From an uncultured archaeon (GTDB lineage: Archaea > Aenigmatarchaeota > Aenigmatarchaeia > CG10238-14 > SCSR01), in the NCBI GenBank assembly GCA_964372485.1, contig CAYJQI010000001.1:523714-587713 (forward strand): a stretch of 64,000 bases of DNA, in the 5' to 3' direction. A program made the position numbers and the translations under genes. The notes under the pieces are model-generated. The model did no database searches. It was not told where the DNA came from and was given only the letters and a program-made list of their open reading frames with translations. How positions within the stretch are numbered: the first letter of the stretch is position 1; each line of letters begins with the position of its first letter. Below, one piece after another: positions 5,084-6,591 of this stretch.

Positions 5084-6591
5084 ATGCCGTTTAGTAACAA
5101 AGTATTCAAGAAACCTGAGTTCAAGAAAATATCAGATGTAATCTGGGAAATACCTACAAGTTTCAAACCTGGAATGAGAGTTCCTGCTAGAGTATATGCT
5201 AGTAAAAAAATTGTAGATCAAATGGACTTGCATGTGTATGATCAGATAACAAATGTTGCCAACTTACCAGGAATCCAAAAATATGCATTCTGCATGCCCG
5301 ATGGCCATATCTCTTCTAGTTAATTCTAAAGAGAGACAATTCCGGGTACGGATTTCCGATAGGAGGTGTTGTAGCATTAGATCCAGAAGAAGGTGGAGTT
5401 ATTTCACCCGGAGGAATTGGTTATGACATCAATTGTGGAATGAGACTCGTTCTAACAAATCTAACTTTGAATGATGTTAAACCTCATCTGAAAACTTTGG
5501 TTGATAAATTATTTGATCGAGTTCCTGCTGGTGTTGGTTCAAGCGGATTTGTAAAATTAACAAAAGATGATTTTAGAAAAGTTGTGATGGAAGGTTCTGA
5601 ATGGGCTATTGAAAAGGGATATGGTTGGAAGGAAGATTTGGAACGAACAGAATTAAATGGTAGAGCTGATTGGGCAGATGTTTCTAAAGTTTCATCGAAA
5701 GCTGTTGAAAGAGGAGTTAATCAAATAGGAACTTTAGGTTCTGGTAATCATTATCTGGAAATTCAAGTTGTGAAGGATGAAAATATTTTCGACAAGGAGC
5801 TTGCAAAGAAATGGGGACTATTTCCAAATCAGATTGTTATAATGTTCCACTGCGGATCACGAGGATTTGGTCATCAAATCGGAACAGATTATTTGGAATT
5901 ATTCCTTTCAGTGATGGAAAAGAAATATGGAATTAAAATTTTGGATCCAGAACTAGCATGCGCACCATTCAACTCTCCGGAAGGACAAGATTACTTCAAA
6001 GCGATGGCATGTGGTGTGAATATGAGCTTCGCTAATCGTCAAGTTATTCTACATAGAATTAGAGAAGTATTCTCAGATGTCTTTAAACAAGATGCAGAAA
6101 AATTAGGAATGAAAATGGTTTTTGACGTTTCACATAACAGAGCTTCGTTAGAAGAACATGAAGTCGATGGAAAGAAGAAAAAGTTAGTTGTTCATCGAAA
6201 AGGTGCAACAGGTTCTTATCCTCCAGGTCGAGTGGAAATACCAAAATTGTATCGTGATGATGGTAGTCCAGTAATTATAGGTGGAAGCATGGAAACAGGA
6301 TCATATCTTTTGGTCGGCGGTGATAAAGCCAATGAGACTTTTTGTAGTACTGCGCATGGGAGTGGAAGAACAATGAGTAGAACTGCTGCTACACGACAAT
6401 TTAAAGGCGAAGTATTGCATAAAGAGATGCTTTCCCGTGGGATATATGTCAAATCTGTATCATGGTCAGGACTTGCTGAAGAAGCCGGTGGTGCATACAA
6501 GAATGTTGATGATGTCATAGAAGCTACCCATCAAGCGGGGATTTCTAAAAAAGTAGTAAAACTTTTACCAATTGGTAATTTGAAAGGCTGA
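5084..6591 (+). CDS. rtcB: RNA-splicing ligase RtcB, reading frame interrupted by a 32-nt insert at 5309-5340
   Basis: ORF 5084-5323 ends ...LPGIQKYAFCMPDGH. The shifted frame from 5341 reads [36 protein letters not shown] and runs into ORF 5440-6591. That ORF carries the GSGNHY, HCGSRGFGHQ, HRKGAT and STAHGSGR blocks typical of RtcB. Confidence 0.85.
5309..5340 (+). other. 32-nt intervening sequence inside the rtcB active-site motif (candidate mRNA intron, indel artefact or disruption)
   Basis: Sequence atctcttctagttaattctaaagagagacaat. Removing it restores [14 protein letters not shown] in one frame. Internal pairing: 5310-5315 with 5331-5336, and 5317-5319 with 5326-5328. Confidence 0.6.

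Follow-up and report, generated by a model that had tools for sequence, protein, structure and literature searches.

Does an archaeal rtcB gene that is interrupted in the middle of its active-site motif still give rise to a functional RNA ligase and, if so, at which level is the interruption removed? This question was raised by a stretch of 64,000 nucleotides (referred to as the window throughout the paper) from an uncultured archaeon of the Aenigmatarchaeota (GenBank assembly GCA_964372485.1, contig CAYJQI010000001.1, positions 523,714 to 587,713 of the forward strand). In this window the coding sequence of the ligase RtcB changes its reading frame across an insert of 32 nt, located at 5309-5340. 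Comparison with related loci indicated that this insert is very probably an intron of the bulge-helix-bulge (BHB) type, which would be removed at the RNA level from the rtcB pre-mRNA.

Organization of the Interrupted rtcB Gene

The window contains tRNAs and an RNase P RNA of the archaeal type, has a G+C content of 35% and was found to be archaeal. An open reading frame (ORF) of 79 amino acids at 5084-5323 covers RtcB residues 1-75, up to ...FCMPDGH, and then runs through ISSS into TAA, while the rest of RtcB is found in the +2 frame, which is open from 5320 and closed by the stop codon at 6589-6591. A first-pass annotation of the sequence had described this arrangement, had stated that deletion of 5309-5340 creates one continuous rtcB frame, and had found no ATG, GTG or TTG between the TAG at 5317-5319 and the codons for GYG. 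All three statements were reproduced. Deleting 5309-5340 (ATCTCTTCTAGTTAATTCTAAAGAGAGACAAT) in silico fused the ORFs 5084-5323 and 5320-6591 into a single RtcB ORF of 491 amino acids, free of other lesions, and from the TAG up to GYG the downstream frame contained none of the three start codons. The dinucleotide AT at 5307-08 recurs at 5339-40, and excision of 5307-5338, 5308-5339 or 5309-5340 yields the identical product. On the plus strand, exon 1 therefore comprises codons 1-75 (5084-5308, ending ...FCMPDGH and aligning to residues 5-67 of P. horikoshii RtcB) and exon 2 codons 76-491 plus the stop codon (5341-6591, starting with SGYGFPIGG).

The spliced protein aligned with P. horikoshii RtcB from end to end (E 2.5e-170). 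Residues D73/H75 of the window protein correspond to Asp65/His67 of the P. horikoshii enzyme, D104/C107 to Asp95/Cys98. The insert lies between the codons for His67 and Gln68 of P. horikoshii, two codons past Asp65, and its removal restores the motif PDGH-S-GYG with the conserved H-x-GYG spacing. The closest public RtcB proteins (84-88% identity, Aenigmarchaeota-named) are uninterrupted, count 491 amino acids and read MPDGHSGYG. In the public record of the source genome (P0023) RtcB is present only as a C-terminal fragment of 383 amino acids, starting from the ATG at 5440.

A group I or group II intron and an intein were considered for this insert and rejected. Group I and II introns possess a catalytic RNA core of more than 200 nt, and inteins form an in-frame protein-splicing domain. 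The insert measures only 32 nt, shifts the frame and carries stop codons, and Rfam gave no family match at the locus.

Close Carriers and Selection on the Interrupted Gene

Two near homologues are annotated as proteins of 423 amino acids, with N-termini consisting of insert-derived residues. Their contigs, L001 (from the JGI metagenome 3300021357) and L002 (from an ENA assembly), each showed a 79-aa ORF plus a 423-aa ORF, an architecture as found in the window. Both carry a 32-nt insert at the identical codon, which agrees with that of the window at 30 of 32 positions and is the same in L001 and L002 (32/32). The two differences to the window are both located in the loop. There, L001 (3001-3004) and L002 (602-605) read GTGA, in which a TGA stop overlaps with a GTG start, and the window reads TTAA (5320-5323). 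The 423-aa RtcB calls made by gene callers are explained by this GTGA. The sole two substitutions between the introns make or abolish this pseudo-coupling signal.

Synonymous sites among the window, L001 and L002 were saturated, with third codon positions identical at only 49-55% and a synonymous divergence (dS) of at least 1.6. The ratio of nonsynonymous to synonymous divergence (dN/dS) was ~0.06 across both exons; for exon 1 between intron carriers, a dN of 0.045 was obtained versus a dS of 0.74. Thus, the gene was kept under strong purifying selection while bearing the insert, and the intron itself is conserved far above neutral sites (30-32 of 32 positions versus 49-55% at third positions).

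These data bear on the explanation that the interruption is an assembly or indel artefact, or marks a recently inactivated pseudogene, both of which the first-pass annotation had listed. The annotation of only a fragment in the public record would speak for it. However, three independent assemblies of different origin share the 32-nt insert, homologous inserts were found in 69 more genomes (see below), a dN/dS of ~0.06 was maintained on both exons since the carriers diverged, the spliced ORF is without any other lesion, and the gene for archease is retained. We consider the probability of an artefact or a dead gene to be negligible.

A stretch of 35 nt in exon 1 (5267-5301) shows no difference between the window, L001 and L002, even at third codon positions. 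Across the 60 genomes of the structural class to which the window belongs (class A, see below), constraint persists only at the CCC proline, the glycine and the histidine codons. The long identical stretch may mean that the structure extends further in this lineage, or may be due to chance.

A Family of Inserts at the Same Codon in DPANN Archaea

Using one genome per species (GTDB), a scan for the pattern ATGCCNGAYGGNCAY-N(20-50)-GGNTAYGGNTTYCC yielded 70 loci, 69 of them archaeal and nearly all of these from DPANN genomes. Together with the window, L001 and L002 they form a family of 72 loci. According to their titles, the 69 archaeal loci belong to Woesearchaeota (24), Aenigmatarchaeota (14), Nanoarchaeota (8) and Micrarchaeota (4), the others being named "archaeon" or "uncultured Methanosarcinales"; one carrier is the complete genome CP010426 (GW2011_AR20; L059). 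The comparison of orthologous loci proposed in the first-pass annotation thus showed frame-restoring inserts to recur at this codon, in 2 genomes close to the window and 69 that are more distant, and this recurrence is far beyond what chance would produce.

The inserts are 21-36 nt long (30 nt in 14 loci, 31 in 5, 32 in 23 and 33 in 21, plus others), and their lengths fall into phases 0, 1 and 2 in 38, 6 and 28 cases, respectively. An in-frame stop codon was present in 71 of the 72, including all 38 phase-0 inserts. In the window and all 72 loci, excision restores full-length RtcB with its H-x-GYG spacing. The exon-2 frame opens too late, i.e., after the upstream frame has closed, in 10 of the 28 phase-2 loci (3 of class A and 7 of class B, the second structural class described below) and in the single class-B locus of phase 1. 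With all three phases and the stop codons taken together, only removal at the RNA level would restore RtcB in every genome; a split gene, a frameshift or read-through cannot do so.

Two translational explanations were weighed against these data. Firstly, rtcB might be a split gene, with a 79-aa N-terminal and a ~420-aa C-terminal piece produced by translational coupling and assembling with each other without any RNA splicing. Split genes are known in DPANN archaea, and in L001 and L002 the stop codon of the N-terminal ORF overlaps a GTG start, with called ORFs of 79 and 423 amino acids. However, the window has TTAA at this spot and no start codon ahead of GYG, and a start codon within the insert in the exon-2 frame exists in just 10 of the 72 loci. 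Translation of the pieces would introduce foreign residues (ISSS / ILKRDN) into the active-site loop PDGH-x-GYG. Moreover, a split gene leaves the covarying hairpin and the exon-wobble pairing described below, as well as a near-identical insert amid saturated synonymous sites, without explanation. We regard it as highly improbable.

Secondly, the ribosome might pass the insert by recoding, either through a programmed -1 frameshift at AGU_UAA or through bypassing as in T4 gene 60 and the yeast mitochondrial byp elements. The insert combines a stop codon with a hairpin, as in gene 60, bypass elements occur in all phases, and the exon-2 frame of the window is open from 5320, just one base ahead of the frame-0 stop at 5321. 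Nevertheless, 5315-5323 contains no slippery heptamer, and a frameshift would add 11 residues to the active-site loop and is impossible for the 38 phase-0 inserts with their stop codons as well as in 10 of the 28 phase-2 cases. For bypassing, which the first-pass annotation had also named, take-off and landing codons do not match: the take-off codon CAY is faced by AAU, AAG, AUU or AAA as last insert triplet, with only the 2-nt AT repeat in the window, and in those class-B members that have the tail ...GUGGUAG-GG (the hyphen marking the splice site) a landing ahead of UGG would hit UAG. Recoding also does not predict pairing between an exon wobble base and the tail of the insert. It was judged to be as improbable as the split gene. 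The preferred explanation, an intron removed from the RNA, accommodates all phases.

Eleven of the carriers (L004, L024, L031, L032, L036, L045, L051, L056, L060, L064, L069) are metagenome-assembled genomes (MAGs) titled "uncultured Methanosarcinales". The introns in these MAGs match those of Woesearchaeota MAGs exactly or almost exactly (e.g., L031 = L056 = L025), and the labels are probably wrong or generic. The only bacterial match of the scan (L071, 208-256, a Geobacteraceae MAG) was left out of all counts. It shows a 20-nt gap (a 17-nt "insert") without hairpin and without conserved tail, and is probably an unrelated indel, a frameshift or a chance match.

RNA Structure of the Insert Family

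The boundaries of all inserts were set from the protein frame alone. Pairing was then tested in the layout h1, H(4), b1 b2, splice site, b3, h2...h2', H'(4), b1' b2', splice site, b3', h1'. Two classes became visible. In class A (n = 60, including the window) the insert follows CAY and consists of A or U (b3), a hairpin (h2), the tail G(A/G)CA (the 4-nt H') and two further nucleotides NN (b1'b2'), after which exon 2 starts with the codon of the residue x. The tail stands immediately 3' of the hairpin and is conserved in the 60 genomes. The central helix between exon and intron is formed by G·A in 54 of 60 genes, by G-C in 59 and G·U in the remaining one, by a variable third pair, and by C-G in 60 of 60. 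The third pair joins the wobble base of a glycine codon in exon 1 to a purine in the intron and was found as UA (41), CG (12), UG (5) and CA (2). The association of wobble base and purine was strong (odds ratio 49, Fisher p 3e-7) and was observed in exon backgrounds of the Ser-type and the Trp-type alike. Overall, 58 of the 60 genes have three Watson-Crick or G·U central pairs plus the conserved G·A. The bulges are equally uniform, with b1 being A and b3' being U in 60/60, b2 a pyrimidine, and b3 A or U.

The glycine codon of the helix ends with a pyrimidine in 60/60 class-A genes. A scan of metagenome contigs for loci without intron gave 24 loci, mostly from distant GC-rich lineages, the closest of which (L075) was ~80% identical. 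We were aware of the fact that these loci make a poor control for codon usage, and the other glycine codons of the same 60 genes were used instead. These end with A in 38%, G in 11%, C in 30% and T in 21% of cases (pyrimidine 51%, purine 49%).

In the inner helix, pairs 1-5 are formed in 53-60 of 60 genes by many pair types; across the six-pair helix 89% of the cells are paired, and compensatory changes were observed for all 6/6 pairs. The covariation score in a gapless, boundary-anchored alignment was 0.328, versus 0.141±0.010 for shuffled alignments (0/500 reached the observed value) and at most 0.132 for slid partners. RNAalifold, applied without any BHB assumption to 18 members of equal length, returned a 3-bp central helix, the inner helix and a 3-nt bulge that contains the 5' splice site; in window coordinates it pairs 5335-5337 with 5304-5306. 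In class B (n = 12, including GW2011_AR20) splicing would take place 2 nt further downstream (CAY UG, splice site, A...GUGG AA, splice site, G) and lead to H-W-GYG. Here the central helix is perfect, with 4/4 pairs in 12/12 loci. The first-pass annotation had proposed, from the window sequence, that the ligase gene carries an mRNA intron of the endonuclease type, and this proposal is thereby strongly supported by a covarying structure at one codon in ~72 genomes.

For the outer helix, which joins the two exons, the support comes from synonymous codon bias only. The proline codon at -4 is CCC in 53/60 genes, compared to 4-7/60 at other proline codons, and 54/60 have GGG or GGC as the glycine codon at +2, with GGG used in the Ser-type and GGC in the Trp-type context, each fitting its own pairing register. 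Ser-type exons form 6 bp, with 19-23 of 23 genes paired, and Trp-type exons form GCCC/GGGC, with 34-36 of 36 paired. Judging from these codon choices, the exon synonymous sites are constrained to pair with a partner in the intron or in the other exon. A BHB motif shifted by +6 or +7 nt, which can be drawn for 22 class-A loci, was rejected; it offers U·G-rich pairing (UCUU/GGGG) and would remove the conserved glycine of GYG.

The Window Copy as a Relaxed Motif and Arguments Against an Intron

All elements of the window motif lie on the plus strand. The exon strand of the central helix (H, GGCC, made of the codon GGC and the C of CAT) is located at 5303-5306 and is assigned by the family-wide pairing with H', the intron strand (GACA, 5335-5338), which represents the conserved tail and was also paired by RNAalifold. 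The 5' bulge of 3 nt (A, U and, after the predicted cut between 5308 and 5309, A; 5307-5309) is unpaired in the RNAalifold consensus. On the 3' side four unpaired bases (A and U, followed after the predicted cut between 5340 and 5341 by U and C; 5339-5342) form the bulge or loop, as the outer helix begins at the third base of exon 2. The intron (5309-5340) thus reads as class A: an A, the 25-nt hairpin, GACA and AT. Its inner hairpin (5310-5334) is formed by 5310-5315/5329-5334, a bulged C5316, 5317-5319/5326-5328 and the loop 5320-5325, in agreement between the minimum-free-energy fold and covariation. The outer helix pairs UGCCCG (5295-5300) with CGGGUA (5343-5348), as seen in the minimum-free-energy fold and in the codon bias of both strands. 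The minimum-free-energy fold of 5290-5352 comprises this outer helix and the inner hairpin, with 6 bp each in the inner and outer helices, and a 9 × 8-nt internal loop that contains both predicted splice sites. Self-complementarity of the insert and the pairing 5317-5319/5326-5328 had already been noted in the first-pass annotation and hold; its register 5310-5315/5331-5336 does not, as the family data favour 5310-5315/5329-5334 with six Watson-Crick pairs.

Several observations argue against an RNA-level intron at this locus. The central helix of the window consists of G·A, G-C, C·A and C-G, with only two of four Watson-Crick pairs, the 3' bulge has 4 nt instead of 3, and the z-score of the window fold was only -1.6. 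For the outer exon-exon helix, compensatory covariation was not found in the class-A alignment. The exact spliced proteins of 10 carriers were absent (0/10) from a collection of 15 billion proteins, and the metagenome-contig scan mentioned above brought up no cDNA-like copy with the same exon context. The stop/start overlap in L001 and L002 would permit a two-piece protein. Finally, a second intact rtcB is not encoded within the 64-kb window, which covers part of a contig of ~791 kb, and another copy elsewhere is possible.

The weak central helix also leads to a more specific explanation, in which the intron family is real and the window copy is splicing-impaired. A synonymous U-to-C change at 5305 creates C5305·A5336, with the consequence that little rtcB product would be made in this genome, or that another ligase or a further gene copy would stand in for it. 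The window is indeed one of only two CA cases among the 60 class-A genomes at this covarying pair, and L001 and L002 have U-A. On the other hand, the gene is otherwise intact, the intron is identical to that of the two carriers outside the loop, and both the inner and the outer helix reach 6 bp. Helices often accommodate a C·A apposition. In addition, broad-specificity endonucleases cut motifs with a disrupted helix (PMC5829648), and relaxed BHB motifs are described as substrates for EndA types of broad specificity (PMC5829648, PMC12397907). An impaired copy appears unlikely to us, and a relaxed yet spliceable intron is preferred.

The C·A at the covarying pair explains why the window copy looked unfoldable when viewed alone. 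From the window sequence by itself no canonical BHB was obtained, as four central pairs are not reached with any of the three equivalent 32-nt excisions; the matter was settled only by family comparison. The reservation of the first-pass annotation that no canonical hBHBh' motif can be drawn has accordingly lost most of its weight: the layout of the 32-nt excision is canonical, and the window copy of it is relaxed, with 2/4 central pairs. Its alternative excision of 23 nt (5316-5338) had to be abandoned, being not conserved and adding residues which no relative has. A generic scan of the whole window for BHB motifs and merged ORFs was too permissive, gave hundreds of meaningless matches and was discarded. 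It missed the rtcB intron due to the 2/4 central helix.

Additional Probable Introns and Apparent Inteins in rtcB of Relatives

After removal of the first intron in silico, 18 of the 72 genes remained interrupted by extra introns, which are absent from the gene of the window. At a second site, ~85-90 nt (about 25-30 codons) downstream of the first intron, 13 loci (L003, L005, L007, L015, L021, L027, L031, L040, L055, L059 [CP010426], L063, L067, L072) carry inserts of 23-33 nt in all three phases. They are found between the codons for GFD and INCG, at three sub-positions (-2, 0 and +2 nt), right after the codon equivalent to Asp95 of P. horikoshii RtcB, which we take to be a metal-binding residue. 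At a third site, between the codons for SPGG and IGFD (GG-IGFD), five loci carry inserts of 12-37 nt, namely L014, L026 and L046 (12 nt), L041 (19 nt) and L044 (37 nt). Here H is GAGG and H' CCUU(C), and the 12-nt introns belong to the bulge-helix-loop type: they lack an inner helix, as does the tRNA-Asn intron of the window, and their loop has only 5 nt.

For both sites together, 18 of 18 inserts showed a frame-restoring excision, a perfect central helix of 4 bp and bulges of 3 nt. The intron strand H' follows the synonymous bases of the exon (TGAC/GTCA, CGAT/GTCG, CGAC/GTCG, TTCG/CGAA, GGTT/AACC; GAGG/CCTT). As far as can be judged by pairing and frame, these two sites are an independent replication of BHB introns in rtcB.

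Some intron-bearing rtcB genes additionally contain apparent inteins at DINC-G (L026, L041, L044, with CLHPES... after DINC, and L030, with a spliced ORF of 965 amino acids). Insertions at the RNA level and at the protein level cluster within ~35 codons of the active site.

Splicing Context in the Window

The first-pass annotation had pointed to an intron-containing tRNA in the window. It was identified as tRNA-Asn(GTT) at 50769-50854 (plus strand, ARAGORN and Rfam), with a non-canonical 13-nt intron (50777-50789) at position 8/9. ARAGORN detects this tRNA only with the 13 nt removed, and the Rfam match is limited to model positions 9-63. The intron forms the central helix CCCG (50771-74) / CGGG (50784-87) and lacks an inner helix. 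Since it occurs in the same window, we conclude that the host evidently processes relaxed BHB motifs.

An intact gene for archease, the activator of RtcB, is located at 8866-9357 on the plus strand (Pfam PF01951, E 7.9e-39). It lies 2-3 kb downstream of rtcB in the window (2.3 kb) and in L001 (6997-7272), and the linkage is thus conserved. Directly adjoining rtcB downstream, in convergent orientation, a 289-aa ORF (6597-7466, minus strand) encodes a LAGLIDADG_3 homing-endonuclease-like domain (E 1.7e-8), and L001 has an unrelated ORF of 449 amino acids at this place. The LAGLIDADG_3 ORF could be the remnant of a mobile element.

A Model for the Maturation of rtcB mRNA and Its Implications

In the proposed model, exon positions 5303-5306 of the transcript would pair with intron positions 5335-5338, forming a central helix between the hairpin 5310-5334 and the G+C-rich helix 5295-5300/5343-5348. 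The splice sites (between 5308 and 5309 and between 5340 and 5341) would be placed in unpaired bulges on either side of this helix. The archaeal splicing endonuclease EndA would cut both sites and leave 2',3'-cyclic phosphate and 5'-OH ends. Pre-existing RtcB, aided by the archease encoded 2.3 kb downstream, would then join the exons to the mRNA for the 491-aa RtcB with PDGH-S-GYG intact, and unspliced RNA would give only the 79-aa fragment. Ligation by RtcB itself would constitute a positive feedback, and a regulatory use of such a loop is conceivable. Carrier cells probably need existing ligase in order to make translatable ligase mRNA.

With the interrupted gene encoding the enzyme that seals such introns, a self-referential expression loop would result. 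The further assumption that the rtcB introns form a conserved circuit which is selected, rather than tolerated parasites, is tentative, and we rate it as possible though rather doubtful. If it were true, translatable rtcB mRNA could arise only where active RtcB, along with EndA and archease, already exists, ligase synthesis would be autocatalytic and tied to the current RNA-ligation capacity of the cell, and a cell that has lost all RtcB could not recover, which amounts to a protein-inherited state. Up to three introns plus inteins at metal-binding motifs, and their retention in four DPANN phyla, would then reflect selection for this coupling. Alternatively, the clustering of introns could be caused by mobility, through reverse splicing into the ligase's own mRNA.

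Independent of the circuit, the introns have practical consequences. Annotation pipelines call these essential genes fragments or pseudogenes, which distorts estimates of DPANN genome completeness and metabolic inference. The rtcB introns further offer a natural data set for RNA structure encoded via the synonymous sites of a conserved active-site motif, and concrete candidate substrates for studying the specificity of DPANN splicing endonucleases.

Comparison With Known Systems

A BHB element has been reported for the HVO_1309 mRNA of Haloferax volcanii, where EndA action was shown in vivo and in vitro (PMC7714728). In contrast to rtcB, the element resides in the 5' untranslated region, the coding sequence is uninterrupted, and the example concerns a single species. 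The RtcB inteins, e.g., those after DINC, resemble the introns in that they look like parasites and interrupt the same gene at its best-conserved active-site motifs. However, inteins are spliced out of the protein, keep the reading frame and span hundreds of codons, whereas the rtcB inserts carry stop codons and shift the frame.

The splicing of HAC1/XBP1 proceeds by IRE1 cleavage and ligation by RtcB or Trl1, and the XBP1 intron measures 26 nt. The likeness is one of logic only, i.e., a short, non-spliceosomal, frame-changing intron and RtcB sealing 2',3'-cyclic phosphate and 5'-OH ends. HAC1/XBP1 differs in using IRE1 on twin 7-nt loops, in targeting a transcription factor, and in being eukaryotic and stress-regulated.

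Closer relatives are the non-canonical tRNA introns with relaxed BHB motifs (hBH, HBh', BHL), which are cut by EndA of the (alpha-beta)2 or epsilon2 type (Marck and Grosjean, 2003; PMC5829648; PMC12397907). They share with the rtcB introns the logic of the motif, the size of 12-40 nt and the disruption of one bulge, and the tRNA-Asn of the window provides an example from the same genome. In contrast, rtcB presents an mRNA substrate, in which codons make up the exon halves of the motif and the structure is held via synonymous sites.

The closest known system is the BHB intron in the pre-mRNA of cbf5, the gene for a pseudouridine synthase, in Crenarchaeota (Watanabe, 2002; Yoshinari, 2006; Yokobori, 2009; as reported in PMC5829648 and PMC7714728). 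Both systems have in common a short BHB-type intron in a coding sequence, presumed cutting by EndA followed by joining by tRNA ligase, and a patchy distribution among close relatives. A paper from 2020 explicitly names cbf5 as essentially the sole archaeal case of a BHB intron in a coding sequence (PMC7714728), and a paper from 2025 still cites only cbf5 (PMC12397907). In the open-access literature and bioRxiv to 2026, subscription-only papers being outside this scope, no description of an rtcB mRNA intron or of a self-referential ligase loop was found. Compared to cbf5, the rtcB intron sits in the gene of the ligase itself and in DPANN archaea rather than Crenarchaeota. It exists in two structural classes 2 nt apart at one codon, with up to two further sites in some relatives. 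In the main class the central helix is relaxed and includes a conserved G·A, and the encoded product would be required for the maturation of its own mRNA. From these comparisons, rtcB appears to be the second archaeal protein gene with BHB introns, occurring in ~70 species across DPANN, in two classes at one codon and at further sites, and it is the first multi-intron archaeal protein gene that we are aware of.

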